From assembly GCA_009699015.1 (NCBI GenBank), contig WLOY01000001.1:414-64413 (forward strand): a DNA stretch of 64,000 nt. Direction: 5' to 3'. Position numbers and translations under genes: made by a program. Each line of letters opens with the position of its first letter. The first letter of the stretch is position 1. The notes beneath the pieces were generated by a model. It was not told where the DNA came from, did not search any database, and worked only from the letters and a program-made list of their open reading frames with translations. Positions 14,894 to 54,180 of the stretch are shown here, in pieces. This stretch comes from Actinomycetota bacterium. GTDB lineage: Bacteria > Actinomycetota > Actinomycetes > S36-B12.

Positions 14894-14913
14894 TACCAAC
14901 CAAGCGATTGGTA
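14894..14913. promoter_or_regulatory. inverted repeat TACCAA-N8-TTGGTA upstream of the regulator gene
   Basis: Read directly. It overlaps possible -10 hexamers TAGCAT/CATGGT and shares the TTGGTA core with boxes in other promoters of the island. Confidence 0.45.
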
Positions 14914-14926
14914 GCATGGTAGGGAG

Positions 14927-16672
14927 GTGTGGGGAGGGATTCCAGTGGAGACGGCTGTCAGGGCCCAGGCGCAAGAGCAGCTCCTTGCTCGCTCTTGGAC
15001 ACGGTCTCGCGCGTTTGGCCTTGATCAGGGAGCGCCCCTTGAGTTGCCGTTCCATGCCGGGGTCGAATCCGACAATCGATTCACGCGGACGGCCCGTCCC
15101 GTTCTCGACTACCTCGGGGATCTGCTACCAGGATGCGGCACCGCCGCGGTCCTCCTCGATGCTCAGGGATGCATCCTTGCCCGCGTCTGTGACGACGACT
15201 CGCTCCTTCGACGGATGGACAGCGGCAAGAGCGTCCCCGGCTTCGTGTGGAGGGAGGAGTACGCCGGCTGCAACGCTGTAGGCATTGCGCTGGAGGAACG
15301 TCTCCCCGCATGGACGAGCGGACAGGATCATTACATGGAGGTCTTGCGCGACCTGTCATGCGCAGCAGCACCGATCATCAACCCCCTCAGCCAGCGACTC
15401 GAAGGCGTCCTTGACCTCACGGCTAACCTCACATTCGCCCATCCGCTGATGCTGCCTTTAGCGATACAGGCAGCCAAGTCGATCGAGGAAAGGCTCGTCG
15501 CTGCTGGGTCGGCGACAGAACAATTGCTCCTCCGCCGCTTTCTCTCGGCCTCCCGACGGCCAGGTCAAATGGTCCTCGTCCTGAGTGAGCGATCCGAACT
15601 CAGCACCAAGGCCGCGGCCCGACGCCTCAGTGCGTCTGACCGGGCGGTGATCGCCCACGCGGCGAGCGAACAAGTCGATGGCACTGACTCGAACACCTTT
15701 GACCTCGCCCTCACGGATGGTGGAGCCGTATCGGTGCGCTGCGAGACCATCGAGGCCCAAGGCCGCAGGGTGGGCTCGGCCGTCACGATCACGAGTCGGG
15801 ATGCCGGTCGCACCACACGTCGAGGCCCTGCGGTCACGTCCGGGTCTTTGGGATCAATCTCCCCGAGCCCGGGCTTCCTAGGACGAAGCTCAGCGAGCCA
15901 ATCAGTCCGTCATGACGCCGGCGAACTGGCTACCGCAGCATTCCCGATACTGATCTCGGGCGAGTCTGGGGTGGGGAAGGTTCACCTCGCAAGCATCATC
16001 GGACGAAGCCTTCGAAACGTCCTCCTGCTCGACGCACGCACGTATTGCGAGGAAGGCGAGCGGGCGCTTCTTCGAGAGCTCTCTGCGTTCGTTCACAAGG
16101 CTCACACGTGCGTCATCGTCCGCAACATCGAGGTGCTGTCCGATCATGTCCTGAGAGAACTGGGCTCCGTCGCCCGCGTTGCCGAGGAGAATGGCTCTCG
16201 AGTCATCACCACGACCACGTCTACCTCCGATATCACCCGCGACAACCGACTGCCAATAGGAATCGGGATCCACATTCCTCCGCTCAGGGAACGACCGGAG
16301 GACATCTGGGACCTTACCCCAGCACTCCTCGCACGCAAGGGCTCGAATATCCGAACGGCAGCACCAGTATTGGAGGCCTTCATGCGCTATCCCTGGCCAG
16401 GCAACGTCAGTGAACTCGATACAGTGCTGTCCGCCATGTTGCACCGATGCCGCGGATCTCAACTCAGCCTTGCCGACCTTCCCGTTCAATACCATCGCGG
16501 CGGAAGGCGACTGCGCCGCATCGAGCACGTCGAGCGCGCAGCAATTGTGCAGGCCCTCGCGGAGGCAGGTGGTAACCGAACGAAGGCAGCGGGGATTCTC
16601 GAGATCGGCCGCGCCACGCTTTATCGAAAAATGCGTGTCTACGGACTCGGTCCAGACAGCGTCGCGATCTGA
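14927..16672 (+). CDS. GAF-AAA+-Fis(HTH_8) transcriptional activator with degenerate AAA+ module
   Basis: Walker A GESGVGK, PPLRERPEDI, WPGNVSELD, and the C-terminal HTH NRTKAAGILEIGRATLYRKM. The GTG at 14945 has a better-spaced GGGGAGGG RBS. Confidence 0.8.
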   Translation: MWGGIPVETAVRAQAQEQLLARSWTRSRAFGLDQGAPLELPFHAGVESDNRFTRTARPVLDYLGDLLPGCGTAAVLLDAQGCILARVCDDDSLLRRMDSGKSVPGFVWREEYAGCNAVGIALEERLPAWTSGQDHYMEVLRDLSCAAAPIINPLSQRLEGVLDLTANLTFAHPLMLPLAIQAAKSIEERLVAAGSATEQLLLRRFLSASRRPGQMVLVLSERSELSTKAAARRLSASDRAVIAHAASEQVDGTDSNTFDLALTDGGAVSVRCETIEAQGRRVGSAVTITSRDAGRTTRRGPAVTSGSLGSISPSPGFLGRSSASQSVRHDAGELATAAFPILISGESGVGKVHLASIIGRSLRNVLLLDARTYCEEGERALLRELSAFVHKAHTCVIVRNIEVLSDHVLRELGSVARVAEENGSRVITTTTSTSDITRDNRLPIGIGIHIPPLRERPEDIWDLTPALLARKGSNIRTAAPVLEAFMRYPWPGNVSELDTVLSAMLHRCRGSQLSLADLPVQYHRGGRRLRRIEHVERAAIVQALAEAGGNRTKAAGILEIGRATLYRKMRVYGLGPDSVAI

Positions 16673-18309
16673 TGGACGCGGCGTCAATTGACGGGTCCAC
16701 TCAGCATCCATCCCGACCCAAGCGTTTGATGACGTCCGCGAGCGTGATGAATGAGCCGAGCGTCGTGGGCGACATCACGACCATCTGGGCGCGACGAGAC
16801 CCGACGCGGGTAGCCCTACGCAACAAGGACGGCGTAGAGCGCACCTATGCCGAACTCGAGGATCGAACAACACGCATCGCCAACGGCCTGCTCGCCATGG
16901 GGCTAACCGCCGGCGATCGCATCGCAACCTGGATGGACGACTGCTTCGAATATGTCGAGGTGTACCTGGCCGCGGCAAAGGCGGGGCTGATCATCTGTCC
17001 CATCAATGCCCGACTCACCCCGGCCGAGGCCACCTACCTCCTCAATGACAGTGGCCCGCGGATCATCATCTGGACTGCGGATCTCGATGAGAAGGTGGCC
17101 GAACTTGATGATCGTGAAATGGTGGATCGACATCGCCTCCGAATCAATCCGGGTGGCGAATGCCAACTCGCGCGCCTCATCGAGGCCTCGCCTCCCAACC
17201 TCCAGCCCGTCGATGTCGATCCGGCCAGCCCGTTGATCCTGGGCTACACGAGCGGAACCACCGGGCGTCCAAAGGGAGCGATCCTCACCCACGAGTCCAT
17301 TCTCGCCCTGGGCCGAATCAACGCCACGTCATTCCGAATGACCGCCTACCCGCGAATGGCACTCACCGGCTCGATGTCGTTCGTCGCCGTGGTCCCTGCC
17401 CATGTGCTGTGCACGCTGAGACTTGGCGGCTGCCTCACAATGATGGGCAAATGGACAGTCGATGAACTGCTGGCGGTCCTTGAACGCGACCTGATCACCT
17501 TTACATACATCCCCTCCCCACTGATCACCGACGTTGCACGAGCGCTAGCCCAGCACCCACAGGCGTGGACAAACCTGCGCTCAGTCCTGCACTCCGCAAG
17601 CCGAGCACGACCGGACCAGTTACATGAACTCGTGACGGTGATCGGTACCCGCTTGGTTGAGGGCTGGGGGATGACCGAAAACTCGGGCGGCCTCATGACC
17701 GCCATGCTCGGACATGAGTATCTCGGCCGCGAGGTACACGACCCCGCGTTCACGTCGGTCGGGTTACCAGCCCTTGACATCTCCGTACGGGTCGTCGGCC
17801 CTGAGGGGCACGAACTTCCGCATGACGGTGAGAGCATCGGCGAGTTGGCCTTCTCCGGGCCGTCACTGATGACCGGCTACTGGAACCGCCCTGAAGAGAC
17901 GGCAAAGACTCTGCGGGACGGCTGGTTCTTCACCGGCGACTTGGGAAGTATCGACAGCGCCGGTTACGTGTACATCTCAGACCGTCGAACAGACCTCATC
18001 GTCAGCGGCGGCGCGAACGTCTACCCGAGCGAGGTCGAGGATTGCATCAGCCAGTTGGCAGGAGTGCGTGAGGTCGCAGTCGTCGGGGTTCCACATGAGC
18101 GCTGGGGCCAGACCGTAGTTGCGGCCATTGTGGTAGACGATGATTCCATCACCCAAGAGGTCGTGCTCGAGCACTGCCGGACGTTCTTGGCAAGCTACAA
18201 GAAACCCACTCGCGTCCTAATGATGGAGTCACTCCCCCGCACTGTCAGCCTCAAAATCTCGCGCGCTGCAGTCCGAACCATCGTCCTCGAGCAGGTTGAA
18301 CCGACGTGA
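16672..18309 (+). CDS. AMP-dependent acyl-CoA synthetase/ligase
   Basis: YTSGTTGRPKGA, GWGMTE, TGDLG, PRTVSLKISR. The ATG at 16672 overlaps the regulator stop (TGATG); an alternative ATG lies at 16729. Confidence 0.85.
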   Translation: MDAASIDGSTQHPSRPKRLMTSASVMNEPSVVGDITTIWARRDPTRVALRNKDGVERTYAELEDRTTRIANGLLAMGLTAGDRIATWMDDCFEYVEVYLAAAKAGLIICPINARLTPAEATYLLNDSGPRIIIWTADLDEKVAELDDREMVDRHRLRINPGGECQLARLIEASPPNLQPVDVDPASPLILGYTSGTTGRPKGAILTHESILALGRINATSFRMTAYPRMALTGSMSFVAVVPAHVLCTLRLGGCLTMMGKWTVDELLAVLERDLITFTYIPSPLITDVARALAQHPQAWTNLRSVLHSASRARPDQLHELVTVIGTRLVEGWGMTENSGGLMTAMLGHEYLGREVHDPAFTSVGLPALDISVRVVGPEGHELPHDGESIGELAFSGPSLMTGYWNRPEETAKTLRDGWFFTGDLGSIDSAGYVYISDRRTDLIVSGGANVYPSEVEDCISQLAGVREVAVVGVPHERWGQTVVAAIVVDDDSITQEVVLEHCRTFLASYKKPTRVLMMESLPRTVSLKISRAAVRTIVLEQVEPT

Positions 18310-18332
18310 AATGCAAAAACTGGGTTGGTCTC

Positions 18333-19025
18333 CTACTCGAGGTCTAGATCAGGTTCCAGATGGTTCGTGTCATTGAACCGTCTCAGAAGCCAGTCATCGC
18401 CCCGAACGACCAGGTGCGTCAAGGATGCGTTGTCGGACTCCGATAGGGAGTGCATCCGGCCACCCGTGGCCAGTGCCGAGATCATTCCGATGACGCCACC
18501 ATGGGTGAAAACGACCACCCGCTGATTCGGATGGTTTGACGCTATTCGCTTGATGGCACCAGTGAGACGTCTCGCAAAGTCGACTTCCTGCTCCGCCATG
18601 GGAATAACGTCCCAGGTCCTTTCAGCAAGCACACGCTGCCAGTCTGGGTGGTTCTCTTCACGACGAATTCGGTAGACGCCCCCCTCCCACTCACCGAGAA
18701 AGATCTCACGAACATCGGGCTCAACCATCGGAGTCAGCCCGGTAATCTCCGCCAACGGCGCAGCCGTCTGTGCCGTCCGCTGAAGGGTGCTCACGTAGAT
18801 CGCGTCAATCGGTTGCTTCGCAAGTCGCGCTGCGACCATGCCCGCCTGCACATGCCCTCGCGGATCAAGGGGCGGGTCACCGTGCCCGTCGACGAGCGGT
18901 TGGGGGTCGTCAAGACGAAATGGCCTGGATTCGCCATGGCGCACGATGAAGATGTGCGTGGCTCCTTCAGGCAGACTGAATCGATTTTGGCGGTATTCAA
19001 CCACAGCCGGCTCATCTTTTGTCAT
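18333..19025 (-). CDS. histidine phosphatase family protein (PGAM-like)
   Basis: IFIVRHGES catalytic RHG motif. The ATG at 19025 overlaps the upstream stop (ATGA). Confidence 0.8.
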   Translation of the reverse strand: MTKDEPAVVEYRQNRFSLPEGATHIFIVRHGESRPFRLDDPQPLVDGHGDPPLDPRGHVQAGMVAARLAKQPIDAIYVSTLQRTAQTAAPLAEITGLTPMVEPDVREIFLGEWEGGVYRIRREENHPDWQRVLAERTWDVIPMAEQEVDFARRLTGAIKRIASNHPNQRVVVFTHGGVIGMISALATGGRMHSLSESDNASLTHLVVRGDDWLLRRFNDTNHLEPDLDLE

Positions 19026-20467
19026 GACGGCAGATCCATTTCCCTTGACGATGCTGATGGAATATCCGGACGTGCCCAAGTCGCGGCACCCGAGCCCGCA
19101 ACACGACCGAAGACGAAGGCACTGGTAATCGAGTTTCCACTACCGACATAGACGTCGCCGACAACTCCCCCGGTGCACTCCCCTGCAGCGAATAGCCCCG
19201 GAACGGCAGCGCCCGAATCGGCAAGCACCCGCGCCTGCGAGTCGATTCGCAACCCCACCGCCGTCAGTGCGACATGCGCCATGCGGAGTTCGGTGGCGTA
19301 GAAGGGTGGCGTCTGGACCTTCCGCAGGACATCTGCACGCTTGCGGTAGTGACTGTCCTGCCCGGCAGTTACGTCGTGGTTGTATTCCTCAATCGTCCCA
19401 AGGAGCCGCTGTTCCGGGACTCCCATCAGGGCCGCCAGTTGCTCAAGGGAATCCGCCTTCAGCACTCTTCCTCGCTCGACCATCTCATCGAGCATCGCCT
19501 TCACCCACTTCTGCGCACGCCCGTCTCGTTTCCCCACCGAGACCTTCTTCGTAGCTTCGACGGTGTCAGGCGAAGACGAGTTCTTTGACTCCTCGTCGAA
19601 TACAGCAAAGACCGGGGCGCGCTGGCCCTCCAAGATGGGCTGAGTAACGCTGTAGGACGACGTCTCATCGTAAAAGCGTCGGCCCTCACCATTGACGATG
19701 ACGAGCCAACCGGGCAGGTACCCACCCTCAAGTACGTTTCCAAAATTTGGGGTAATCAACCGGGTCGCGCGACCCCCGCCTACAACTTGGGCGTCAACCT
19801 GCGCTCCAAGTTCGAACGCGCTCCCATCAGACGTTGCTGCACCGATGTACCAGTACCAGTCCTCATTCGCGAGTAAAGGCAGGTGCTTGCTCACCAACTC
19901 ACGGTTCGCTGCGAACCCGCCCGTCGCCATGACGACAGCTCCAACCGACAGTGTGTCTGCGCCTACGGCTAGGCCTACCACTTCGCCGTCTGCGACAAGC
20001 AACCTGTCAACCTTCATCCCCAACGCGAATTCAACGCCAATTCGCTTGGCCTCGCTCACGAGCGTCTGACTCACGGCCATCCCCTCACCCACCGTGATGT
20101 GCATACGCGCGGCGCGTTCTTCACCTGAGGTCATGACCCTGGAGTCGAAGGCCACCCCGATGTCCTGCAACCAGTCGATCGTCGCGCCCGATCGCTCACA
20201 GAGCGTCCGGATGACCGACGGCTCAAGCCGAAAGCGATTGAGCCCCATGTAGAAGCGGTACATGTCCTCGGGATCGTCCTCGATGCCAGCCTCTCGCTGC
20301 AAACGAGTGCAGGCTCCCATGAGCTTGCCTCCTGAGAGTCGGCTGGACCCCCCTAGCTCACCTGAACCCTCAAGAACGATGACTGATGCACCCTCAGCAC
20401 GCGCCGTGATTGCCGCGGTCAGCCCAGCGAATCCTGAGCCGATGACCGCAACGTCGAAGTCGGTCAT
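19022..20467 (-). CDS. FAD-dependent oxidoreductase, KstD/fumarate-reductase flavoprotein-like
   Basis: MTDFDVAVIGSGFAGLTAA dinucleotide fold, GELGGSS, and C-terminal GLFAAGECTGG. Start 20467 overlaps the upstream stop. Confidence 0.8.
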   Translation of the reverse strand: MTDFDVAVIGSGFAGLTAAITARAEGASVIVLEGSGELGGSSRLSGGKLMGACTRLQREAGIEDDPEDMYRFYMGLNRFRLEPSVIRTLCERSGATIDWLQDIGVAFDSRVMTSGEERAARMHITVGEGMAVSQTLVSEAKRIGVEFALGMKVDRLLVADGEVVGLAVGADTLSVGAVVMATGGFAANRELVSKHLPLLANEDWYWYIGAATSDGSAFELGAQVDAQVVGGGRATRLITPNFGNVLEGGYLPGWLVIVNGEGRRFYDETSSYSVTQPILEGQRAPVFAVFDEESKNSSSPDTVEATKKVSVGKRDGRAQKWVKAMLDEMVERGRVLKADSLEQLAALMGVPEQRLLGTIEEYNHDVTAGQDSHYRKRADVLRKVQTPPFYATELRMAHVALTAVGLRIDSQARVLADSGAAVPGLFAAGECTGGVVGDVYVGSGNSITSAFVFGRVAGSGAATWARPDIPSASSREMDLPS

Positions 20468-23350: not shown

Positions 23351-23414
23351 GACTAAACTCCCTCATTCATACGTTGGCAGCCGAGAAGCGGTAAGGCGCA
23401 GGTTGAAACGACGG

Positions 23415-25792: not shown

Positions 25793-25866
25793 TTCGCGCC
25801 TTTCCCTATTTGCCTTAAGGAATATGTCACGTGAGAACAAGGTAGTCGAGCTTGGCTCGACACCGC

Positions 25867-25906: not shown

Positions 25907-25919
25907 ACTGATGAAACTG

Positions 25920-27125
25920 CTACTTGGCGAAGGCTGCTGTCGCCTCTTCCTTGGTGAGAGCACCTGACATGTCCGCACTTGGCGGGAACGTGTTGTCACA
26001 CGCTGGCAGAACGCCCTCGAGGGTGTTGATGTAGGACGGGTACGCGATCAGCGTGTCCCCATCCGTCGGGCCGAGTTCCGGTGCAGCGATCCCCTGGAAC
26101 GCTGCGAACAGCTTGGCCAGGCTAAGCGCATGCAGGTTCTGCGAACCGTCGAGGCTCTGAACCTGGAACTTCGGATCCTTCTTCACGGCCTTGTTAATCT
26201 CGCACACAGTCTCCATGGAGGCAGACTGACCGGTGATCGCCGGGTACGGCACGCCCGCTGCTTCGTACGCGCGCATGATCGCCGGAATCGTGGCGGTGTA
26301 GGTCGAGATGATCCCGTTGATGCTCGGGTCCTTCTGAAGGAGACCGGTCACTGCCTGCTGGGTTGCTGCGGGATCCCAGTTGCCGGCAACCGGCTCGGGG
26401 GTCACAACAGTGATGCCTGAACCCTGATTGGCGATCGCCTTGTTCACTGCTGCGAGCGACGGGACATCAAAGAGGTTTCCGGCCGGACCACCGATGTAGG
26501 CGACCTTGCCAGCGTTGTTCGTGGCCTTGGTCAGCCACTCGACCCACATCTCCGCCTCCTGCTGCATATCGGGGATCACGTTGGCCGTGACATCAGCGGG
26601 AACCTTGGCATCACCGGGAATGGCATTGCCGTTTCCGATGAGCACGCCGGCTGCCTGAGCCTTCTTGAACGCCTCGACCGGCGCCTGTCCGAAGGCATCG
26701 AACGTCTCGATGACATTGGCACCCTGCGCGACAAGGCTGTCTACACCGGCGATGTACTGCTGAACATCGAAGTTCGAATCGACGTAGAGGACGTCGGTAA
26801 CGTTCGGGCACTGAGCAGAAAGCTTCTCCAGGATGGCCTTCTTGCCTACCGCCCAGCCGTTGCCGCCGTATGCATCGAGGATGCCGACGACCATTGGCTT
26901 GGTGCCGCAGTAGTTGGTGATGTCAAAAGGCAACTCACCGAGCATGATTTGTGTGCCGTCTACAGCTGGTGCCGCCGCTTCGCTCGAAGCAGGGGCTGCC
27001 GCCTGGCTCGAAGCTGGAGCCGCAGCCTCGCTCGGTGTTGTCGACGTGGACGACGAGCTACAGGCCGAGGCCAGCAGCAGCAGTCCGACGGCCGGAATTA
27101 TCGCGGCCGCATGCATTTTTCGCAT
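25920..27125 (-). CDS. ABC transporter substrate-binding lipoprotein (CUT2/PBP1 sugar-type)
   Basis: Signal peptide plus lipobox LLLLASAC, then an Ala/Pro/Ser linker and a periplasmic-binding-protein type 1 pattern. AAGGAG RBS. Confidence 0.85.
   Translation of the reverse strand: MRKMHAAAIIPAVGLLLLASACSSSSTSTTPSEAAAPASSQAAAPASSEAAAPAVDGTQIMLGELPFDITNYCGTKPMVVGILDAYGGNGWAVGKKAILEKLSAQCPNVTDVLYVDSNFDVQQYIAGVDSLVAQGANVIETFDAFGQAPVEAFKKAQAAGVLIGNGNAIPGDAKVPADVTANVIPDMQQEAEMWVEWLTKATNNAGKVAYIGGPAGNLFDVPSLAAVNKAIANQGSGITVVTPEPVAGNWDPAATQQAVTGLLQKDPSINGIISTYTATIPAIMRAYEAAGVPYPAITGQSASMETVCEINKAVKKDPKFQVQSLDGSQNLHALSLAKLFAAFQGIAAPELGPTDGDTLIAYPSYINTLEGVLPACDNTFPPSADMSGALTKEEATAAFAK
26965..27035. 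repeat. three tandem 24-nt repeats inside the SBP linker
   Basis: The units gctggtgccgccgcttcgctcgaa / gcaggggctgccgcctggctcgaa / gctggagccgcagcctcgctcgg encode (E/Q)AAAPASS x3 on the minus strand. Confidence 0.8.
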
Positions 27126-27179: not shown

Positions 27180-27483
27180 CCGCTTCGTTCCCTGCAACCT
27201 GCCCTTCACTTCGAAAACCAAAGTCAAGATGGCCATGCACGCACTGCATCATCCATGAGGAGGACGAATCGGAACCTACCTGCCGTTTGGTTTGAAATCA
27301 AGAGTTATTCGAAACTTGGAGTAACTTCTTGATAACGACGTGTCGAGCGAACCGTAGATCGACCTAGCGCCTGACCACAGCAATCGTGGGACGACATCGG
27401 GGGGTGCAACTGCCTGAAGGGAGCGTTGTCGCAGATTTCGCATCTGCCTACCTCATCGCCGGTGACTGATTTCCGTGGGGTAC

Positions 27484-27511
27484 TTGACACCGAACGACCG
27501 TTTGGTAAGTT
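27484..27511 (+). promoter_or_regulatory. candidate promoter TTGACA-16 nt-TAAGTT with CGTTTGGT box in the spacer
   Basis: -35 at 27484-27489 and -10 at 27506-27511, about 29 nt upstream of the GTG at 27540, which has a GGAG RBS. Confidence 0.5.
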
Positions 27512-30188: not shown

Positions 30189-30992
30189 GTGACCACGCCC
30201 ACCGATGAGGAACCCCTTCTCGTCCACTTCGCCGACGGAGTACTCCGCATCCAGTTGAACCGTCCGAAGGCCCGAAATGCAATCAACTGGGCCATGCGCA
30301 GAGAACTCCACCGGATCCTCGGTGATGCGTCCAACGACAATTCGGTTCGCGTTGTCGTCCTCGCGGGTGATGAGCGTGCCTTTTGTTCTGGTGGCGATGT
30401 AAAGCAGATGGGCGGAGGCGACTCCGACACCTCGGACAAGTTGATCATGATGAAAGCGATAAGTGAGACCGTGACGGGCATGCTGAAGCCGGTCGTGGCC
30501 GAAGTTCGGGGTCATGCTGCCGGCGCGGGGTTTGGTCTGGCCCTCATGTGTGACCTCGTCCTCGCTGACGAGACCGCCGTCTTCACATCCACGTTTATCC
30601 GAATCGGACTCGTACCTGACCTCGGGCTCGCTTATTGGCTGCCACGTCAGGTCGGACTGCACCGCGCGAAGGAGATCATCCTGACCGGGCGCCCAATCGG
30701 TGCCCATGAAGCACTCGCCCTCGGACTCGTCGCGCGCGTCTGGGCAACCGACACCTTCCGTTCTCGTGCAGACGAATTCATCGCCGAACTCTCCGCCCAA
30801 CCCGGTGTCGGAATGGGGTTGACCAAACCACTGCTCAATCAGACGTTTGAGACCAGCCTCTCGGCAACCCTGGACTCGGAGCGCTTGGCCCAGATCACCG
30901 CCGCACATTCGCACGAGCATCAGTCGTATCTAGCTGGGCTGCGCTTAGGAAGGTCTGTTGCCCAAACAGCGGATCTACGTCCAAAGATCTAA
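30189..30992 (+). CDS. enoyl-CoA hydratase/isomerase (crotonase)
   Basis: RPKARNAI, FCSGGD, and the oxyanion-hole segment GHAAGAGFGLALMCD. GTG start. Confidence 0.85.
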   Translation: MTTPTDEEPLLVHFADGVLRIQLNRPKARNAINWAMRRELHRILGDASNDNSVRVVVLAGDERAFCSGGDVKQMGGGDSDTSDKLIMMKAISETVTGMLKPVVAEVRGHAAGAGFGLALMCDLVLADETAVFTSTFIRIGLVPDLGLAYWLPRQVGLHRAKEIILTGRPIGAHEALALGLVARVWATDTFRSRADEFIAELSAQPGVGMGLTKPLLNQTFETSLSATLDSERLAQITAAHSHEHQSYLAGLRLGRSVAQTADLRPKI

Positions 30993-31001
30993 ACGACCGT
31001 A

Positions 31002-31054
31002 TTGACAGACCAAACACGACCGCTATCATTACATTACCAAACAGTTGTTTGGCA
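31002..31054 (+). promoter_or_regulatory. candidate promoter TTGACA-16 nt-TATCAT followed by inverted repeat CCAAACA-GT-TGTTTGG
   Basis: -35 at 31002-31007 and -10 at 31024-31029. The 7-2-7 inverted repeat at 31037-31052 sits just downstream of the -10 and 20 nt upstream of the ATG at 31073. Confidence 0.55.
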
Positions 31055-33135: not shown

Positions 33136-33835
33136 CTAGCGCATATTCGCCAAGTGTGCGGCGTACGGATCTCTAGGTGATTGCCATGACAGTACTGCCA
33201 TGGGTCGGTCGCGCTTGCGCTGGGAGATGCGTCGGCGGTGGGCGGGGGCGTGGTCCAGTTCGGTTTCCTTGGGCATGTGTTGTCGCGAGACTCCGTTGCT
33301 GTTCTCATCGGATCGGCGCTGCCATGGCGAGTGGGCCTCGGCGAAGTAGATGTCGATGCCCAGTTGCCTGGCGAGTTCGTGGTGATCGGACATTTCCTTG
33401 CCCTGGTCCCAGGTGATGGAGATGACGTGCCAGGCCCGCATGCGCCGGGTGGACACCTTGACGGGGATGGTGATCCTGGTGACTCGGCAGGCGAGGGTCG
33501 CGAGCGCGGTTCGGTCGCCTGCTCCCGCGGGGCGCTTGTCGATCATGGTCATGTCCATGATCCTTCCGCTGCCGCAGTCGGTTTTCGCCCTGGGCTGCCG
33601 CCGGGTCCGGGGCCTCGTCATGAGACTGCGGATGAACTTTCTGTCGTGGGTGTCGCCGGCGTAGAGCCAGTCGCAGACGCACCTGCGGGCTGATCGTCGG
33701 CAGGTGCGGGCACGGCCGGGCGGCATGCGTCCCGGACCGGCGACGCATCTCCTGGGAGATCGTGGACTGATCGGCACCGACCGCCGCACCGATGGCCTCA
33801 CGCAGTGGCAAGGTCAGACGGGCAACCTTGATCAT
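33136..33835 (-). mobile_element. IS30-family transposase pseudogene (frameshifted, shortened)
   Basis: The N-terminal HTH (AIGAAVGADQSTISQEMRRR) is in one frame. The DDE core (ITWDQGKEMSDHHELARQLGIDIYFAEAHSPWQRRSDENSNG) is in another. Total length is only ~700 nt. Confidence 0.75.
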
Positions 33836-37540: not shown

Positions 37541-37602
37541 GTCTATCCCTTCAGCCCGATCCAAATCCCCCGGAAAGTTCACTACCGGACGTTTGATTGG
37601 TA

Positions 37603-37631: not shown

Positions 37632-37662
37632 ACATGGCAGGAGACTCGGTCTTTTGAAGACC

Positions 37663-37697
37663 AAGGGGCCCTGGCGAACACGTCGCCAGGGCCCCTT
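37663..37697 (-). terminator. perfect 15-bp stem / 5-nt loop hairpin after the cupin gene
   Basis: AAGGGGCCCTGGCGA-acacg-TCGCCAGGGCCCCTT, 14 nt past the stop at 37711. No U-tract. Confidence 0.65.
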
Positions 37698-37710
37698 CGA
37701 ACTGTCTTGG

Positions 37711-38247: not shown

Positions 38248-38253
38248 AACTTC

Positions 38254-38283
38254 AACCTAACGTATGGTAGGGAATGTTGTTAA
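38254..38283 (-). promoter_or_regulatory. candidate promoter TTAACA-18 nt-TAGGTT, ATG 6 nt after the -10 (leaderless?)
   Basis: The plus strand shows tgttaa at 38278-38283 and aaccta at 38254-38259. The 12-mer tcaacctaacgt (38252-38263) is identical to 43877-43888. Confidence 0.5.
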
Positions 38284-38392: not shown

Positions 38393-40189
38393 CTACGAGA
38401 CGTTCAACCCCTCGAAGTCGCCCGCATCGCGCCACACCCGCCAGGATCGGAAGAACTGAGGCGACGGTCTATAAGAGCCTGTAGCAATACCCGACCGAGT
38501 GTCGCCCTTCATTCCCTCTGCATTGAAATATCCCGGGGTGCATTGCTCTTGGAAAGGTGCACGAGCAACGTTCACGGCAGCGATCTCGAGTTGCCACGCC
38601 TCTTCCGCTGCAGCCGTTGCCTCAACTTGAGTCAGGCCTTCAGCGAGCATCCGCGCCACGATGTAGGTGACGTGCTCCGCCTGTTCCCGCAGCATGTGTG
38701 GAACATTCGTCGTGGTCCCACCCTGTGTGAGGCCCAGAAAGAAGAGATTAGGAAAGTCCTTGCTGAAAAGTCCGTGGAACGTCTTCATTCCTTGAGCAAA
38801 CTTCTCCGACACTCGAAGCCCGCCCCGCCCGATCACGTCGTAGCCAGCTCTATGGCTCCACGTCGTGCCGAGCTCGAAACCCGTTGCGAACACGATGCAA
38901 TCAAGTGGGTATTCGACGCCACCGACCACAACGCCCGCCTTGGAGATCGCGTCGATGCCTGAGCTCACGTCCACGAGCGAGACACTGTCGCGGTCCATCG
39001 CCGGAAGATAGTCGTCGCTGAAGCCCGGACGTTTGCACATCGTTCGGTAATACGCTTTCAGAAGCCGAGCCTTCTCTGGGTCTTTCACGTAGTCATCAAC
39101 TCGAGCACGAACGAGTTCGTTATGCTTGAAATCCGCCAACTCTTTCGCAGCCTCGATGTCCTCGGCGCTCCCAGCGTCCTCAGGCAGGCTCTTCACAGCG
39201 TCAAGTAGCCGACGGAAGAACCTCGTCCACCCGTCATCGATGTCGCAGTCGACGTCCTCCCCATTCACCAGATTGTTGAAGGCGACTTGGCGCTCTTGTT
39301 GCCACCCCGGGCTCAGCGCCGAAAACCAATCTGTGTCGGTCGGGGCATTGTCCCGCACACCCACAGCCGTCGGCGTGCGCTGGAAGATGCGCAACTCTGA
39401 CGATGCCCTCGCTAGCTCGGGAACGATCTGCAGTGCGGTAGCACCGGTACCAATGACACCGACGCGCTTGTCACGAAGGCCGACCAGATCACCGCCCGAA
39501 TCACCTCCCGTATACCCGTAATCCCACCGCGCACTGTGGAAGATTGTCCCCTCGAAGTCCTCGATGCCGGGGATTGCCGGCAGTTGCGGGCGATCGAAAA
39601 TCCCGCTCTGCGTCGTCACGAATCGAGCCCTGAGGACGTCTCCCCTCTCCGTTGACACCTGCCACCGAGAGTCCGCGTCGTCCCATGTCATGCCGTTGAC
39701 CTTTGTCTGGAACAGCGAGCGCTCATACAGGTTGAAGTGGCGACCGAGGAGTTGGCAGTACTCGAAGATCTCGCGTCCCCGGACGTAACGTTCCGTCGGA
39801 ACGTAACCCGTATCTTCAAGGAAAGGAAGGTAGATGTAGGACTCGATGTCGCATCGAATGCCTGGATATCGGTTCCAATACCAGGTGCCTCCGAAGTCGG
39901 CCGCCCAATCAAGGATGCGGAAATTCGTCACACTCGCACTGGCGAGGGTAGCCCCGACTGAGATGCCTCCAAAACCCGCTCCGATGACCAGCACATCGAT
40001 ATCCTCGAAGACAGGATCGCGGTGAACTCCTGGTACCGAATATGGGTCCTCCGCGAAACGAGCGAACCTACCCTCAGCGAATACATATTGATCGGTCCCT
40101 GCGGACCGCCGACGCTTATCTCGTTCCGCGCGATACGTCTCGCGAAGAGCCTCAACGTTGAGTTCCGCGCCGAGAGTTGGATCTGCCAT
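38393..40189 (-). CDS. type I Baeyer-Villiger monooxygenase (FAD/NADPH)
   Basis: VLVIGAGFGG, the BVMO fingerprint FEGTIFHSARWDY, and VGVIGTGATALQ. The ATG at 40189 has a GGAGG RBS; the ORF is open to 40252. Confidence 0.9.
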   Translation of the reverse strand: MADPTLGAELNVEALRETYRAERDKRRRSAGTDQYVFAEGRFARFAEDPYSVPGVHRDPVFEDIDVLVIGAGFGGISVGATLASASVTNFRILDWAADFGGTWYWNRYPGIRCDIESYIYLPFLEDTGYVPTERYVRGREIFEYCQLLGRHFNLYERSLFQTKVNGMTWDDADSRWQVSTERGDVLRARFVTTQSGIFDRPQLPAIPGIEDFEGTIFHSARWDYGYTGGDSGGDLVGLRDKRVGVIGTGATALQIVPELARASSELRIFQRTPTAVGVRDNAPTDTDWFSALSPGWQQERQVAFNNLVNGEDVDCDIDDGWTRFFRRLLDAVKSLPEDAGSAEDIEAAKELADFKHNELVRARVDDYVKDPEKARLLKAYYRTMCKRPGFSDDYLPAMDRDSVSLVDVSSGIDAISKAGVVVGGVEYPLDCIVFATGFELGTTWSHRAGYDVIGRGGLRVSEKFAQGMKTFHGLFSKDFPNLFFLGLTQGGTTTNVPHMLREQAEHVTYIVARMLAEGLTQVEATAAAEEAWQLEIAAVNVARAPFQEQCTPGYFNAEGMKGDTRSGIATGSYRPSPQFFRSWRVWRDAGDFEGLNVS

Positions 40190-40312
40190 CGGACCTCCGG
40201 TCAATGCTTCGCGAACCTGACTCACGCGCGATTGGAGTATGTCCCCAAACATCGCCCTCGCACTGTCTCAATTAGGGCAACAGATCCGTCTCAATGTGAT
40301 TCATCCCCGACA

Positions 40313-43829: not shown

Positions 43830-43878
43830 GGGGCGGGCAGTTGCGAGGTGTCATAGAGCCATTCGAAATCACTCCGTC

Positions 43879-43907
43879 AACCTAACGTCGGTTTGGTAGA
43901 CCGTCAA
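43879..43907 (-). promoter_or_regulatory. candidate promoter TTGACG-17 nt-TAGGTT with CTACCAAACC box in the spacer
   Basis: The plus strand shows cgtcaa at 43902-43907 and aaccta at 43879-43884. It shares the 12-mer tcaacctaacgt with the cupin promoter. Confidence 0.5.
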
Positions 43908-43999
43908 GCACTTTCCAGAGACGACCCTCTGTTCATACAGCTCACGCCACAAAGGTCTCGTCAATCGCTGGCCGCCTTCTCGCGAGAACGGTGCCCCCG

Positions 44000-46712: not shown

Positions 46713-46760
46713 GGCCTCCTCCTTCCTGTAATCGTGATGCCTGACGAGACTCGTGGTGAA

Positions 46761-47684: not shown

Positions 47685-47729
47685 GGTCGAGTCGTTCGCA
47701 AGGAATCACGCCACCCCATACTGATGAAG

Positions 47730-47757
47730 GCCATCGCCCGCATGTGGTGGCGATGGC
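47730..47757 (-). terminator. hairpin GCCATCGCC-N10-GGCGATGGC after the TetR gene
   Basis: 9-bp perfect stem, 14 nt past the stop at 47772. Confidence 0.5.
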
Positions 47758-47771
47758 TAGGGCCAGGGTGA

Positions 47772-48440
47772 CTACTGATTACGCGCTCCGCATGCCCGCA
47801 GTGCAAATTCGACATATGCCGAGGCAACCTGTTCAGGTCCCATCTTCGAGCCAGCGCTGTACCAGTCAGGGATTCCGGTAAAGGCGGCCCAGATGAACAG
47901 GGATGCCATGCGCGGGTCGACGTCCACATCAAGATCGCCTTCGTCCTGACCGGCACTGATGAGTTTACGCAAGCTTCGATCGTAATAGCGCTGTTGTTCC
48001 AAGAGTGAGGAGCGCGAAGAGTCCGACGCATAGCGCCACTCGCGCGAGTACAGACCAGCGCGCTCAAGGTGCGTGAGTGTCCACATGGCGTAGTCGTGCA
48101 GGAAGCGGGTCAGCCGTACAACTGCGGCACCTTCGCCATCCGTCGCCTCCTTCGTGAACTTCATGAGGTCGTCATGAGAGTCCTCAAAGATCTTGTCCAG
48201 CAGGCTCTCTTTTGAATCGATGTAGTAATAGAGGCTGCCCTTGAGCATCCCCAGTGCATCGGCGACGTCCTGAACCGAGGCGCTTGCGTAGCCCTTCTCC
48301 CAGAAGATCTGAATCGCAACGTCGATGACCTCGCGATCACGCGCACGTTCTCCGTTAAGAGACCCAGTGGTTGATCTCTTGGGCTTCCGTGTGACCTTTG
48401 GGGAGCGCTTGGAGCTAGCGTCCGGCTGGTTCGATGCCAT
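47772..48440 (-). CDS. TetR-family transcriptional regulator
   Basis: VIDVAIQIFWEKGYASASVQDVADALGMLKGSLYYYIDSKESLL is a canonical TetR HTH. Confidence 0.9.
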   Translation of the reverse strand: MASNQPDASSKRSPKVTRKPKRSTTGSLNGERARDREVIDVAIQIFWEKGYASASVQDVADALGMLKGSLYYYIDSKESLLDKIFEDSHDDLMKFTKEATDGEGAAVVRLTRFLHDYAMWTLTHLERAGLYSREWRYASDSSRSSLLEQQRYYDRSLRKLISAGQDEGDLDVDVDPRMASLFIWAAFTGIPDWYSAGSKMGPEQVASAYVEFALRACGARNQ

Positions 48441-48540
48441 CTTGTCCCTTCCGACGATCTGCTACGGCACAACAGTGCGCTCCGGCCAACACTTTAATCC
48501 CCACGAGCAGCGCCCGTTGGAGAAGTCACACGGCCGTCCC

Positions 48541-49926: not shown

Positions 49927-49987
49927 GTTGCCAACCGCTCTGCACTTGGGCTCATCGATCCGCTCACCCGGTGACAATCCCTTTGGG

Positions 49988-50788
49988 TCAGGTACCGTTG
50001 AAGACAGCTGGACGCTTCTCAGCGAACGCCGACAGGCCCTCGCGATGATCAGCCGATGCTCGGCAAACCGCTTGAGAGAATCCCTCCAGCTCTGACATCT
50101 GCTCGAGCGACTGCTGCCACGATTGATCAACGAGATTCTTCGTCATGGCCAACGCAACAGTTGCCCCGGAGGCCAGACTGCGCGCCGACGTGGTCGCAAT
50201 CTCCATCAACTCAGCAGCCGGCACAGCCTGGGCGATAAGGCCCATTGCCAGTGCGTCGAGAGCGTTGAACCGGCGACCCGTGAGGAGGAGTTCCTTCGCC
50301 CGAGCTGTCCCGACAATTCGCGGCAGAAAATGGAGCACCCCGCAGTCTGGTACCAATCCGCGATGGACGTAGCCGAGCGACATCTGCGCATCTTCTGCAG
50401 CAATGACGATGTCGCATGCCAAGGCCAAGCTCAGTCCACCACCGTGCGCATGGCCGTTGACGGCAGCAATCACGGGTTTGGGTAACTGAGCGAGTGGTAT
50501 GAACACGGACTTCAGCAAGTGGTCCTGTCGCATCCGAGCACGTTCTGGAGATAGATCGGGATCCATCTCGGACAGATCGCCTCCCGCGCAGAACGCGCGT
50601 CCGGCACCTGTGATGAGCACCGCTCGGATGCTGTTGTCGTACCTGACATCATCAAGCCATCCAGCCAATGCGCGCTTCAAGTCCATGTTCAAGGAGTTGA
50701 GCGCCTCGGGCCGATTGAGGGTCACGGTCGCCAGACCGTCCTCAACGCGAACGTCGAGGACGTCCGAGCTACTCATCAGCTGGACCAT
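49988..50788 (-). CDS. enoyl-CoA hydratase/isomerase (crotonase)
   Basis: RPEALNSL, FCAGGD, and NGHAHGGGLSLALACD. AAGGTGA RBS before the ATG at 50788. Confidence 0.85.
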   Translation of the reverse strand: MVQLMSSSDVLDVRVEDGLATVTLNRPEALNSLNMDLKRALAGWLDDVRYDNSIRAVLITGAGRAFCAGGDLSEMDPDLSPERARMRQDHLLKSVFIPLAQLPKPVIAAVNGHAHGGGLSLALACDIVIAAEDAQMSLGYVHRGLVPDCGVLHFLPRIVGTARAKELLLTGRRFNALDALAMGLIAQAVPAAELMEIATTSARSLASGATVALAMTKNLVDQSWQQSLEQMSELEGFSQAVCRASADHREGLSAFAEKRPAVFNGT

Positions 50789-51713
50789 CGATCACCTTGA
50801 AGAAGTCGATGTCGCTGAGGCTTCCCGTCCTGCGATCACTCCAAACTGCCTGAACTCGTGAACCGGGGTGCACCGATCCCGAGCGTAAGGCTTCCGCAGA
50901 AAGCCCGCCCACCGTGTGGATGAGCCGTGTAGACGTGCCATCAAGGACGATCTCCGCATATACGTATGGCGGTGGGACTCGCTGGCCGATGAACTCAATG
51001 TGCACAACCGAGCACGCTTGAAGCACTCCGGTATCGGGCACATCCACCCAGTCGCCTGTACGAACGAAACACGCCTCGCAGTAAGCCCTCGGCGGCACGA
51101 GGACATTGCGACACGATGGGCACCGCACACCGCGGATTCGCCGGTCGTTCTTAATCCCGTCGAATAGGGAACCATAGAAGTGGCCGTAGGCATGCTGGTA
51201 GTCGAGGACCATCTGGTAGTTCAGCTGTTCGATCGGAGTCGCGGTTTCACCTGCCTCTTCCACCGCATGGACGGGCTCGCTCGGTGCAAGCGCGAAGCCC
51301 ATCAAATCCATGACCGCGCCCTGCGGTTCAGCGGCCCAGACCGCAGTAACCCTCGCCCCCATGCTGAGGGCAGCCGGGTCGCCCTCGACCACTTGGTGCA
51401 GAAAGGGAATGTCAGTGCCATCAAGCAGCACGAGCGCAACCGTTCCCTGATCGGTAACGGTCCAAGCCAGAAGATCGCCGGACGGCGGCACGATGACGAG
51501 GTCGTGAGCGTCACCACCGCAGTCACCGCAGAAGTCCTGCGCAGGAACGCGAATGGTCTCGCATGCCGAACATCGCGTCCCGACAATTCGCTGTTGCGCC
51601 AATTCGGCAAGAAATACCCCCGTAGCGGCTCCCGCCGTCAGGGTGTACGGCATCGAGAGCCGGGCATCCATCGCACCCATGACTTCCCTGGGCAACCCCG
51701 CAGTTGTGGTCAT
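50769..51713 (-). CDS. tandem DUF35 protein (two Zn-ribbon + OB-fold units)
   Basis: Two copies of the module: CSAC...CGDC then an OB fold, and CPSC...CEAC then an OB fold. Confidence 0.75.
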   Translation of the reverse strand: MTTTAGLPREVMGAMDARLSMPYTLTAGAATGVFLAELAQQRIVGTRCSACETIRVPAQDFCGDCGGDAHDLVIVPPSGDLLAWTVTDQGTVALVLLDGTDIPFLHQVVEGDPAALSMGARVTAVWAAEPQGAVMDLMGFALAPSEPVHAVEEAGETATPIEQLNYQMVLDYQHAYGHFYGSLFDGIKNDRRIRGVRCPSCRNVLVPPRAYCEACFVRTGDWVDVPDTGVLQACSVVHIEFIGQRVPPPYVYAEIVLDGTSTRLIHTVGGLSAEALRSGSVHPGSRVQAVWSDRRTGSLSDIDFFKVIDGPADE

Positions 51714-51723
51714 CGAATCCCTC

Positions 51724-52881
51724 TCAGTCCTTAGTCGCGCCGACGACGGCTACACCACGAAGGTTTGCCCAGCCTCCGCCTGCCTGCACAAGCGCAAGTT
51801 CTGCGCCGCCTATCTGGTGTGCCCCAGCCTTACCTGTCACCTGCATTGCGGCTTCCGCCAATCGGATGAGGGCCGTTGCGCCAATCGGGTTCGCTCCCAT
51901 GCATCCACCAGAGGGGTTCACCGGAATATCGCCGCTCATCTCCGTGGCACCTGAAGCGATGAGTTCGGCGGCCCCACCCTCTGGGCAAAGACCGAGCCCC
52001 TCGTAGTAGCTCAACTCAAAGCACGTGTAAGGCTCCTGAAGTTCCGCAACATCGAACTGCCTGCGCGGATTGGTCACTCCGGCATTCTGGTAGACGCGGG
52101 CTGCGGCTACTTTAAGTGGCACTGACTGAAGCATCGATCGGTTCGGGCCGTTGTCTGCTTCCGAGTAGTAAGCCATGCCCCGGATCCATGCGGGCCGGTC
52201 AGTAATCGCCGCGGCATCATCCTCGGCCGCGAGAATCACCGCACATGCGCCGTCCGATATTGGCGGCACATCGAGGAGTTTGATCGGCCAGCAGAGTGGC
52301 TTGGACGCAAGCACTTCCTCGACCGTGACCTCCTTTTTCACATGAGCCTTGGGGTTGAGCATGGCGTTCTTTCGATTCTTGACAGACACCATGGCCGCGG
52401 CTTCCTCGGTATGCCCAAGTTTGTCCATTCGAGCACGCCAATAGGCGGCAGAGAATCCCATGATTCCGACCGCGAATTCTCGCCCCCAGAACGGGTCGTA
52501 CAGCGTTGAAATCGAGGCCTGAAGCGCGCCCTCGGACAACTTGTCATAGGCAACGACGAGGACCCGCCTCGCCAAGCCCGCCTTTATCTGGTTCATTGCC
52601 TGAAGTGCTCCCGCAAGTCCGGTTCCACCACCGCTTGTGACTCTCACCACCGGCTTGTAGCGGGCGCCAAGCGCATCCACGAGCCACTTTTCGGGCTGGT
52701 TCACCGAACCGAACATGGCTGGTCCGCTCGCCACGACTACGGCATCAATGTCGTCCATGCCCAGACCAGCGTCAAGCAGCGCCTCAGTGACGGCCTCGCG
52801 AGCCAAGCCCGCCTGGCTCACATCGAGCCGACGGCGTGAGTGCACCGTCTGGCCTGTACCGACGATTGCGATCTGAGTCAT
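51724..52881 (-). CDS. thiolase-fold protein, SCP-x/Ltp-like, lacking nucleophilic Cys
   Basis: Start MTQIAIVGTGQT overlaps the upstream stop (ATGA). The nucleophile loop reads VTSGGGTGLAGA. C-terminal NPSGGCMGANPIGATA. Confidence 0.8.
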   Translation of the reverse strand: MTQIAIVGTGQTVHSRRRLDVSQAGLAREAVTEALLDAGLGMDDIDAVVVASGPAMFGSVNQPEKWLVDALGARYKPVVRVTSGGGTGLAGALQAMNQIKAGLARRVLVVAYDKLSEGALQASISTLYDPFWGREFAVGIMGFSAAYWRARMDKLGHTEEAAAMVSVKNRKNAMLNPKAHVKKEVTVEEVLASKPLCWPIKLLDVPPISDGACAVILAAEDDAAAITDRPAWIRGMAYYSEADNGPNRSMLQSVPLKVAAARVYQNAGVTNPRRQFDVAELQEPYTCFELSYYEGLGLCPEGGAAELIASGATEMSGDIPVNPSGGCMGANPIGATALIRLAEAAMQVTGKAGAHQIGGAELALVQAGGGWANLRGVAVVGATKD

Positions 52882-54011
52882 GAGGTCTCCAAGGTGACGA
52901 CGCAATGGTTCTGCATACCGATACCGCCGGCGCCATGCGCCAGACCGGTGGTGGCGCCTGTTGGTCCGTGAGCGGATCGGCCCCCCAACTGCGATGCCAC
53001 CTCATGCAGCCGAACGAGTCCCGTCGCCATGACAACATCGGCCGGAAGCGACCCTCCGGAAGCGTTGAGGCCGGGGGCGGAGCCCGGAGCGTACAGGTCC
53101 ATCGCTCGTCCAGGCTCCGCGAGTCCAATCGCCTCAAGCACCATCAATTCCCCAACAGTGGAGCCGGCTGAGACTTCTACTACGTCAAAGTCGCGTGCAC
53201 TCGACGCACCTGACATTCGAAAGGCATTCGCGGCGGCTGCTGCTGCTGCTGGGAAAGATGTGGCATCGCGAGCAGCTAGGAAATGCTGGTCAATCGCGGA
53301 TCCCATCCCCGTGATCCAAACCGGCCTATTGGTGACCTGACGAGCGACATGCTCCGCGGCAACCACAAGCGCTACCGCCCCGTCAACTGGTCGCGCCATG
53401 TCGCGGCGACGGAGCGGTGTGGCCACGAACTCCTCCCAGTAAGGATCGGCGAGCATCGCGTGTTTTGCGTCGACCCAAGAGTTGTCACTCGCCGCCGCCC
53501 ACGCCCGATCACTCACCGCACGCAGGGCCTCCGGATCGATTCCATACCGAGCGAGGTAACGCTGCGCATAGAGGCCCGCGGCCGAATGCTGGTCAAGGCC
53601 AACTGGACGTTGGGTGAATGGCTCCGCGAGCGTGGACCAGAAGTTTCGCGGGTCACTTTCCGAAGACTTCGAGTAGGCGACCACGAGGCCGACAGATCCA
53701 GAGCCTGCGAGGATCTTCGTCGTGGCGTACACCGCCGACCACAGGCCATCCTCCTCGACCCGTGATTCCTCTTTGTGGTGAGCACCCATGGCTCCAAGGA
53801 AGCCGCAGTTGGAGATGCTCCTGCCGTCTAGAAAGTCGCTTCCCGAATCAATGACGAAATCGACATCCGCCATTCGAAGCCCGGTGCCCAGGAGCGCCTG
53901 AGATACGGCCTGGGTGATCAGGTCAACGTGCTGGCGGTCGGACCACGCGCCCCTGAATTCTGTCTGCGCGCTCCCCACCACCGCCGCGCGATTCTTCATA
54001 TCTGTGCCCAT
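52878..54011 (-). CDS. thiolase-fold partner subunit (Cys-less)
   Basis: AAVVGSAQTEF N-terminus and C-terminal NASGGSLPADVVMATG. Start at 54011 or 53999 is uncertain. Confidence 0.7.
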   Translation of the reverse strand: MGTDMKNRAAVVGSAQTEFRGAWSDRQHVDLITQAVSQALLGTGLRMADVDFVIDSGSDFLDGRSISNCGFLGAMGAHHKEESRVEEDGLWSAVYATTKILAGSGSVGLVVAYSKSSESDPRNFWSTLAEPFTQRPVGLDQHSAAGLYAQRYLARYGIDPEALRAVSDRAWAAASDNSWVDAKHAMLADPYWEEFVATPLRRRDMARPVDGAVALVVAAEHVARQVTNRPVWITGMGSAIDQHFLAARDATSFPAAAAAAANAFRMSGASSARDFDVVEVSAGSTVGELMVLEAIGLAEPGRAMDLYAPGSAPGLNASGGSLPADVVMATGLVRLHEVASQLGGRSAHGPTGATTGLAHGAGGIGMQNHCVVTLETS

Positions 54012-54180
54012 GGCACTATTCAACCATTCGTTTGGTTGAGCGCGCAAGTCACGCTTTTAGCTTGATCCGGAATCATTCAAACTCCCGTTTGGTTGCTATT
54101 TAGCCGCCAGCCCGCTATGTTGCTCCCCCTCAGAGCAACGTGAGCTGGGTGGATGCCGACAGTCGGAGGACAGACTCACC

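Follow-up and report, generated by a model that had tools for sequence, protein, structure and literature searches.

The 64,000-nucleotide stretch analysed here, referred to as the window, comprises nearly all of contig C1 (WLOY01000001.1) of the Actinomycetota assembly GCA_009699015.1. It contains nine strong copies of an 18-bp palindrome, the box, for which an alignment of the window sites gave ACCAAAC-N4-GTTTGGT with ACC and GGT 12 bp apart. The nine copies were located at the promoters of nine transcription units in an island of catabolic genes. The box is proposed to be the operator of a KstR2-like TetR-family repressor encoded in the same island at 47772-48440 (hereafter TetR). Based on the sequence comparisons described below, this reading was given a probability of about 0.75.

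The initial annotation had listed a recurrent box in several promoter regions of the window, and the strings were found where it had placed them. These were TACCAA-N8-TTGGTA at 14894-14913, CGTTTGGT at 27284, 27499, 54029 and 54086, CGTTTGATTGGTA at 37590, TATGGTAG at 38263, CGGTTTGGTAG at 43889, the 9-mer AACGACCGT at 27493 and 30992 and the inverted repeat CCAAACA-GT-TGTTTGG at 31037-31052. Boxes that had been listed separately were halves of one palindrome, and TACCAA-N8-TTGGTA at 14894 was one single site. AACGACCGT at 27493 formed the centre of the 27489 site and TATGGTAG at 38263 the right half of the 38251 site. ACCAAAC at 31009 was present as listed but turned out to be a lone half-site and no full box.

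The motif was enriched in the window. GTTTGGT/ACCAAAC occurred 11 times compared to 4.09 +/- 1.78 in dinucleotide shuffles, with 0/100 shuffles reaching 11, and 110 times in the whole 3.76-Mb genome. For CAAACNNNNGTTTGGT with up to two mismatches, 20 matches were detected where 2.46 were expected, a count that was likewise reached by none of 100 shuffles. Inverted dyads of 5-mers were enumerated exhaustively for spacings of 0-10 nt, and CAAAC-N4-GTTTG was the sole one found twice in the non-coding DNA of the window. The comparison of coding with non-coding DNA was extended to the whole genome for this dyad, with 3/3 exact copies non-coding and two of them within the window. Four boxes had seemed to lie in first codons before the start codons were refined (cyclase2 GTG 27540, thiolaseB1 ATG 54011, crotonase ATG 37540 and acyl-CoA dehydrogenase (ACAD) ATG 31073). 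After refinement, non-coding DNA amounted to 3,451 of the 64,000 bases (5.4%) and held all strong copies. The claim that every clear copy is non-coding thus stood for the nine 18-bp copies but not for three GTTTGGT 7-mers in coding DNA (30530, 30822 and 43135), which have no partner half-site. A 22-bp cross-species matrix, built solely from sites of other organisms, gave nine matches of at least 18.3 in the window, all of them non-coding. The next match scored 12.8 (position 1098), and lower ones were mostly situated in coding DNA. In the genome scan, the same matrix found 12 matches of at least 18, nine of which were in the window, whereas a first-order Markov simulation of the same genome length gave none.

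Conservation was followed in 65 non-redundant box sites gathered from other organisms, with the cross-species consensus ctACCAAACGnnCGTTTGGTag. C3/G16 and C7/G12 were 98-99% conserved, both halves alike. The two-fold symmetry and the 18-bp length agree with TetR-family operators, which measure about 14-24 bp. Despite their low weight in the search matrix, G8/C11 in the centre (57%) and the flanking c/t were non-random, and the bases beyond the flanking c/t were random. Sites inside annotated genes without a nearby gene start accounted for 3/65. Box-bearing loci had a TetR of 49-75% identity. Among them, L004-L008, fetched via TetR and showing 49-71% TetR identity, carried the box despite a rearranged gene order; L008 originated from a Nocardioides metagenome-assembled genome (MAG). 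The box preceded thiolaseB1 in L005 and L008, ACAD in L004 and cyclase2 in L006 and L007. As an independent sample, 80 metagenomic loci were fetched via thiolaseB2, regardless of TetR. Sites scoring at least 15 were present in about 35 of these 80 loci, at 45-72% GC. In 25 non-redundant loci, the box centre held a fixed place about 16-24 nt 5' of the thiolaseB1 ATG. Other genes headed by a box across the loci were those for ACAD, BCCP, cyclase, crotonase and SDR, as well as the TetR gene itself in L035 and L044. Matrix-free k-mer counts in 55 thiolaseB1 upstream regions yielded CCAAACG (19/55) and ACCAAAC (15) as top 7-mers and CAAAC-N4-GGTAG as top dyad.

A chance recurrence or a short dispersed repeat, resembling repetitive extragenic palindromes (REP) or miniature inverted-repeat transposable elements (MITE), would be favoured by the base composition, as the window is AT-richer (~61% GC) than the genome (65.6%) and A/T-rich words are more frequent in it. 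However, window shuffles gave far fewer matches, the nine strong copies all fell into 5.4% of the DNA and sites were kept at orthologous promoters in genomes of 45-72% GC. The unconserved outer flanks, together with the palindromic consensus, further argue against a dispersed repeat. This explanation is effectively refuted.

Overlap with core promoter elements, as described in the initial annotation, was seen for all nine boxes, which lie on -35, -10 or +1 regions. A consensus promoter scan found two of the promoters, TTGACA-16-TATCAT with the box 7 nt downstream and TTGACA-17-TACGAT with the box 2 nt downstream. The remaining hexamers were placed by visual inspection. A half of the box falls on the -10 of four promoters, namely TAGGTT at 27274, 38251 and 43880 and TTGAAT at 54019, and the dyad CAAAC-N4-GGTAG is common across species. 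Both would be compatible with a shared promoter element, for instance a TAGGTT -10 plus the recognition sequence of an alternative sigma factor, and no transcription-factor site. Such an element was regarded as highly improbable because the motif is two-fold symmetric with equally conserved halves and because its position varies between the spacer, over the -10 and downstream of the -10. Moreover, separate -35/-10 hexamers of good consensus stand beside the box at the ACAD and crotonase promoters. The single palindromic family, the promoter overlap and the conservation at orthologous promoters support the earlier proposal of repressor-type operators that join the sub-operons into one regulon.

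Four regulators encoded in the window had been proposed as candidates for binding: TetR, IclR (5512-6279), a winged helix-turn-helix (HTH) protein of 219 aa with a weak ArsR/SmtB HTH match (56212-56871) and a GAF-AAA+-HTH_8 protein (14927-16672, GTG start). TetR was the one supported. It has 222 aa, comprises TetR_N and TetR_C_24 domains (PF00440, E 1e-12; PF17932, E 1e-22) and is the sole member of its subfamily in the assembly. It is also the only one of the four with homologues (E < 1e-6) in box-bearing loci outside the genus. Its recognition helix reads GMLKGSLYYYIDSKE (LKGSLYYY). In a profile search, the TetRs of box-bearing loci scored 220-293 bits and all kept G(M/V/I)LKGSLY(Y/H)Y. In box-less distant loci, the TetRs scored 160-202 bits and had helices of the P(V/L)SS(I/L/V)Y(E/D)Y type. 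Helix and operator therefore change together, as expected if TetR reads the box. Among 61 related genomes, TetR was present in five, and the box excess over a reversed-pattern control was +9, +8, +5, +5 and -1 in these. The other genomes had a mean excess of -0.3 and a maximum of +4 (Mann-Whitney p = 0.0035). The four genomes with the largest excess were all TetR-positive, and genomes of the same genus without TetR showed no excess.

The box could also be a true operator bound by another factor, which would be the GAF-AAA+-HTH_8 protein, the ArsR-like 219-aa protein, IclR or a protein encoded elsewhere. In favour of this, a box is located directly 5' of the GAF-AAA+ gene, the 219-aa protein has its weak HTH match and 10/18 long box-bearing metagenomic loci were without TetR in the fetched flanks. 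In contrast, box-bearing loci outside the genus contained no homologue (E < 1e-6) of the GAF-AAA+, 219-aa or IclR proteins. The IclR gene belongs to the box-free left module of the island, and it is the TetR recognition helix that co-varies with the motif. No Sigma54_DBD was found in the 92.6%-complete genome. Without sigma-54, a role of the GAF-AAA+ protein as classical enhancer-binding activator at these promoters is excluded. The boxes lie on sigma-70-type core promoter elements, unlike the upstream sites of enhancer-type activators. The GAF-AAA+ protein looks like a target of the regulon. A binder other than TetR was considered unlikely.

Several points weigh against TetR as the owner of the box. 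Three near-identical genomes of the same genus carry most of the genome-level association, and the two independent TetR-positives alone gave p = 0.23. By blastx, TetR was detected within +/-10 kb in 8/18 long box-bearing metagenomic loci (Fisher p = 0.15). As islands exceed the fetched flanks, TetR absence within +/-10 kb is weak evidence. The co-occurrence table was not significant and was set aside as a test, and the recognition-helix comparison and the genome-level counts were used instead. Most promoter hexamers were set by eye, with only two passing the consensus scan. Finally, no box was found within 100 nt 5' of the TetR gene of the window, and autoregulation would depend on co-transcription from 54011.

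In the mechanism proposed for TetR, a dimer would bind the 18-bp palindrome in the -35/-10 spacer, over the -10 or over the +1 of nine sigma-70-type promoters. Given these positions, the bound dimer is predicted to occlude RNA polymerase at all nine promoters, and about 40 genes would be silent. These would encode CoA ligases, crotonases, ACADs, thiolase-like/DUF35 proteins, the three-part biotin carboxylase, the ABC importer and the Baeyer-Villiger monooxygenase (BVMO). The GAF-AAA+ regulator gene and the operon of TetR itself would also be silenced, as probably would the split-dikinase operon. By analogy to the release of KstR2 by a CoA thioester, the repressor would be freed by a pathway intermediate, probably an acyl-CoA.

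The suggestion of one regulon across the island held for the nine transcription units between about 14.9 and 58.5 kb, but the left 14 kb and the DNA past 58.5 kb were without a box. The left module (genes 1140-13948) encodes IclR, a second thiolase/DUF35 pair, a lactonase and an LLM protein. In the window scan, no box was present in its promoter regions 13949-14031 and 10655-10742. This module is probably under separate regulation, perhaps by IclR. The split-dikinase operon had been described as lacking a clear copy. Its own promoter indeed has the palindrome TCACGTGA instead, confirmed at 25827, yet the 27274 box overlaps the promoter TTGATT-17-TAGGTT heading that gene string. As this promoter is directed at the binding-protein gene (27125), the first in the minus-strand string that ends with the dikinase operon, that operon may belong to the regulon through co-transcription from 27274.

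The nine putative operators are as follows from left to right. ACCAACCAAGCGATTGGT (14895..14912, score 22.4) lies 15 nt 5' of the GTG start of the GAF-AAA+-HTH_8 gene. ACCTACCTGCCGTTTGGT (27274..27291, 19.2) covers the minus-strand spacer and -10 of TTGATT-17-TAGGTT, directed toward the binding-protein gene 25920-27125. ACCGAACGACCGTTTGGT (27489..27506, 21.6) fills the spacer of TTGACA-16-TAAGTT in front of the cyclase2/MaoC/SDR/crotonase operon. ACCAAACAGTTGTTTGGC (31036..31053, 24.7) is located 3' of the -10 of TTGACA-16-TATCAT (31002-31029), which serves the two-subunit ACAD. The half-site ACCAAAC (31009..31015) is situated in the spacer of the same promoter, and a weak 18-mer containing the AACGACCGT 9-mer is present at 30988-31005 (score 6.0). 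ACCGGACGTTTGATTGGT (37584..37601, 18.3; alternative frame 37580-37597) stands 3' of the -10 in the minus-strand promoter TTGACA-17-TACGAT (37631-37603), which belongs to the crotonase/SDR/crotonase/ACAD operon. TTCAACCTAACGTATGGT (38251..38268, 18.8; alternative frame 38255-38272) occupies the minus-strand spacer and -10 of TTAACA-18-TAGGTT before the cupin ATG 38247. ACCTAACGTCGGTTTGGT (43880..43897, 21.0) occupies the minus-strand spacer and -10 of TTGACG-17-TAGGTT, upstream of the operon for the ABC importer, permease and PtlE-like BVMO. TTCAACCATTCGTTTGGT (54019..54036, 24.9) overlaps the minus-strand TTGAAT -10 of the thiolase-like gene thiolaseB1 and heads a ten-gene minus-strand operon including the TetR gene. 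The gene order in this operon is thiolase-like, thiolase-like, DUF35, crotonase and later TetR. TTCAAACTCCCGTTTGGT (54076..54093, 21.5) lies on the BCCP side of the divergent region and heads the operon for BCCP, 5S carboxyltransferase, the 219-aa protein and a CoA ligase. The ATGs of cupin and thiolaseB1 follow 6 nt after the -10, for which reason their transcripts are probably leaderless.

The register is ambiguous at the 37590 and 38263 sites because the half-site holds an internal ACC/AAC repeat. An initial alignment of both sites on GTTTG was dropped for the better-fitting frames ACCGGAC-GTTT-GATTGGT and TTCAACC-TAAC-GTATGGT, respectively, and the matrices favoured frames shifted by 4 nt. 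A 22-bp model, TTCAACCAAAC|GTTTGGTTGAA, fitted the 54019 site but neither 54076 nor 31036 and was dropped as a general description. The tenth, weak copy CCCATACTGCCGTTTGGT (1098..1115, score 12.8) is located in the gap after a CoA-transferase gene, between convergent genes. It lies outside the range of the initial annotation and has no clear promoter, and its function is doubtful.

The assembly comprises 3.76 Mb in 280 contigs. The island, annotated with Pfam and NCBIfam, was assigned to lipid or alicyclic-compound degradation and contains roughly 60 genes, with the box-bearing part spanning about 44 kb. It is about 4-5% poorer in GC than the genome. Relatives of the window genes were found in MAGs labelled Nanopelagicales, Sporichthyaceae, Frankiales, Actinomycetota and Nocardioides, which points to an uncultured and probably freshwater actinobacterium as the host. 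The island encodes at least four CoA ligases, many crotonases and SDRs, MaoC, three cyclase-family proteins and two thiolase-like/DUF35 modules. Its acyl-CoA dehydrogenase is PimC-like and consists of two subunits. Genes for biotin carboxylase, BCCP and a 5S-type carboxyltransferase were present, as were an ABC importer, a PtlE-like BVMO and a PPDK-like split dikinase operon. The BVMO (38393-40252, minus strand) matched the model of the neopentalenolactone/pentalenolactone D synthase PtlE with 665 bits (E 8e-200), at a model cutoff of 1100 bits, which hints at a cyclic terpenoid-type ketone as substrate. Between the ACAD pair and the next operon, a 221-aa open reading frame (33136-33801, minus strand) matched the integrase core (rve) only in part (E 3e-4) and could be the remnant of a transposase within the island. 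A perfect GC-rich hairpin, GGGGCCCTGGCGAC...GTCGCCAGGGCCCC, was found at 37660-37700 between the cupin gene and the promoter of the crotonase operon. It is likely a terminator dividing two box-controlled units, and it was not flagged in the terminator scan because it has no T tract.

Outside the window, the best box was CTACCAATCGCTTGGTTGATAC on contig C5 (1658-1679, score 21.3), in the divergent region between genes for a DUF1996 secreted protein and a DMT_YdcZ exporter. A weaker box (16.4) on contig C204 at 55995 was situated in the divergent promoter region of a paralogous cluster (genes 55449-59169). This cluster encodes PNPOx-like and SnoaL-like proteins, a 577-aa PEP-utiliser-domain protein and a histidine phosphatase, representing a second copy of the dikinase/phosphatase theme. 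Both sites are plausible candidates for extra regulon members. Two other high-scoring matches were judged to be outside the regulon. C96:1995 is AT-rich and lies beside a resolvase-like gene, and C112:64733 belongs to a separate GAAC-N4-GTTC family. This second palindrome family, (T/A)TCGAAC-N4-GTTCGAA, was mostly non-coding (C112:64668 and 64735, C209:13968, C36:5096, C90:4241 and C264:4140) and probably serves a different regulator as operator. The KstR motif is distinct from it, having a 2-nt spacing. A further set of nested dyads was counted genome-wide: CCCCT-N9-AGGGG with 27 non-coding and 3 coding copies, CCCTT-N7-AAGGG with 28 and 0 and CCTTC-N5-GAAGG with 29 and 22. These counts suggest a stem-loop element of REP or terminator type in about 28 intergenic repeats. 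In the distant box-less loci, a different motif was observed upstream of thiolaseB1, CCGAT(A/G)AAA(C/T)(A/G)TCGA, directly 5' of a TTGACA -35 (L058, L061, L066, L073, L085, L090, L097, L098, L100 and L102). Together with the PVSSIYEY-type TetR, it is apparently the sister regulon of another lineage.

The box provides a sequence-based criterion for which genes of the island act together, covering nine units and about 40 of the roughly 60 genes. It joins the split dikinase, the 5S-type carboxylase and the Cys-less thiolase/DUF35 pairs in one putatively co-regulated pathway that is conserved in many uncultured Actinomycetota. More tentatively, and in our estimate at somewhat less than even odds, the box and the LKGSLYYY-type TetR mark a conserved regulon for an uncharacterised catabolic pathway. 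This regulon would be widespread in Actinomycetota of 45-72% GC from freshwater, soil and marine metagenomes. At the same tentative level, the pathway would include Ltp2/DUF35-type aldolase-like pairs, heteromeric ACADs, a three-part biotin carboxylase with 5S carboxyltransferase, a PtlE-like BVMO and a split PPDK-like dikinase. If this is true, the box map delineates the pathway and the effector is an acyl-CoA of that pathway. The main value lies in a map of a conserved, uncharacterised actinobacterial catabolic pathway. TetR and its 18-bp operator offer a handle to screen candidate CoA-thioester inducers and thereby to approach the pathway substrate.

Among known systems, KstR2 (Rv3557c), which controls cholesterol ring C/D catabolism, is similar in being a TetR repressor inside a large lipid-type catabolic island with a palindromic operator at several promoters. 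Among the 60 PDB matches listed for TetR, the best solved relatives were two uncharacterised actinobacterial TetRs along with SCO3833 and KstR2. KstR2 (4w97) was the closest characterised one among these matches, with 57 bits (E 2e-14). The DNA-binding domains are alike, and the KstR2 recognition helix GILSGSLYHHFASKE is very similar to GMLKGSLYYYIDSKE. As the match reached only 57 bits and two uncharacterised TetRs scored higher, TetR is not a KstR2 orthologue. The published KstR2 sites carry ACCAA/TTGGT-type outer bases (PMC3068626). The KstR2 operator AnCAAGnnCTTGnT has 14 bp and a CAAG-N2-CTTG core, unlike the 18-bp box, and the published sites reached no more than 14 with the window matrix and had negative scores with the cross-species one. 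With one mismatch, the KstR2 consensus AnCAAGnnCTTGnT fitted only 14895 (ACCAAGCGATTGGT) in the window and, outside it, the C5:1658 site (fit at C5:1660). Judging from these two sites, the same TetR may read both the 18-bp and the 14-bp, KstR2-like spacing. A second KstR2-like paralogue as owner of the 14-bp-type sites was not found in the assembly. The gene content also differs from the KstR2 regulon by the biotin carboxylase, the PtlE-like BVMO, the cyclase-family proteins and the split dikinase.

The operator core is shared with PsrA of Pseudomonas, a fatty-acid-responsive TetR-family protein that controls beta-oxidation genes and represses via promoter occlusion. The PsrA operator is C/GAAAC-N2-4-GTTTG/C, with TTCAAAC-N4-GTTTGAA at P. 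putida rpoS (PMC13104628). In the window, CAAAC-N4-GTTTG was exact at 31038 and 54078 and had 1-2 mismatches elsewhere, and the 54076 site reads TTCAAAC-TCCC-GTTTGGT. PsrA belongs to another phylum, whereas the best solved relatives of TetR are actinobacterial KstR2-type proteins. No PsrA was among the 60 PDB matches listed and no PsrA model among the NCBIfam matches, with no direct protein comparison made. The likeness of the operators is probably convergent or due to a shared HTH flavour.

Literature searches yielded no description of this operator. BkaR, with the motif GTTA-N-T-N4-A-N-TAAC, differs from the box. KstR3 of Mycolicibacterium neoaurum is a TetR repressor whose operon also encodes a thiolase-like aldolase and a DUF35 protein, and its reported regulon is one small operon (PMC10398937). 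This aldolase/DUF35/TetR arrangement resembles that of the window, compared to which KstR3 controls one operon and not nine units; PMC10398937 gives no operator. For KstR (Rv3574), one TetR repressor acts on dozens of palindromic operators in a lipid/steroid island, and its regulon was derived from motif searches and comparative genomics (PMC1995591). Its motif TnnAACnnGTTnnA differs from the box in half-site sequence and spacing. The mechanism proposed here is an ordinary one, a TetR repressor with a multi-operator regulon like those of KstR and KstR2.

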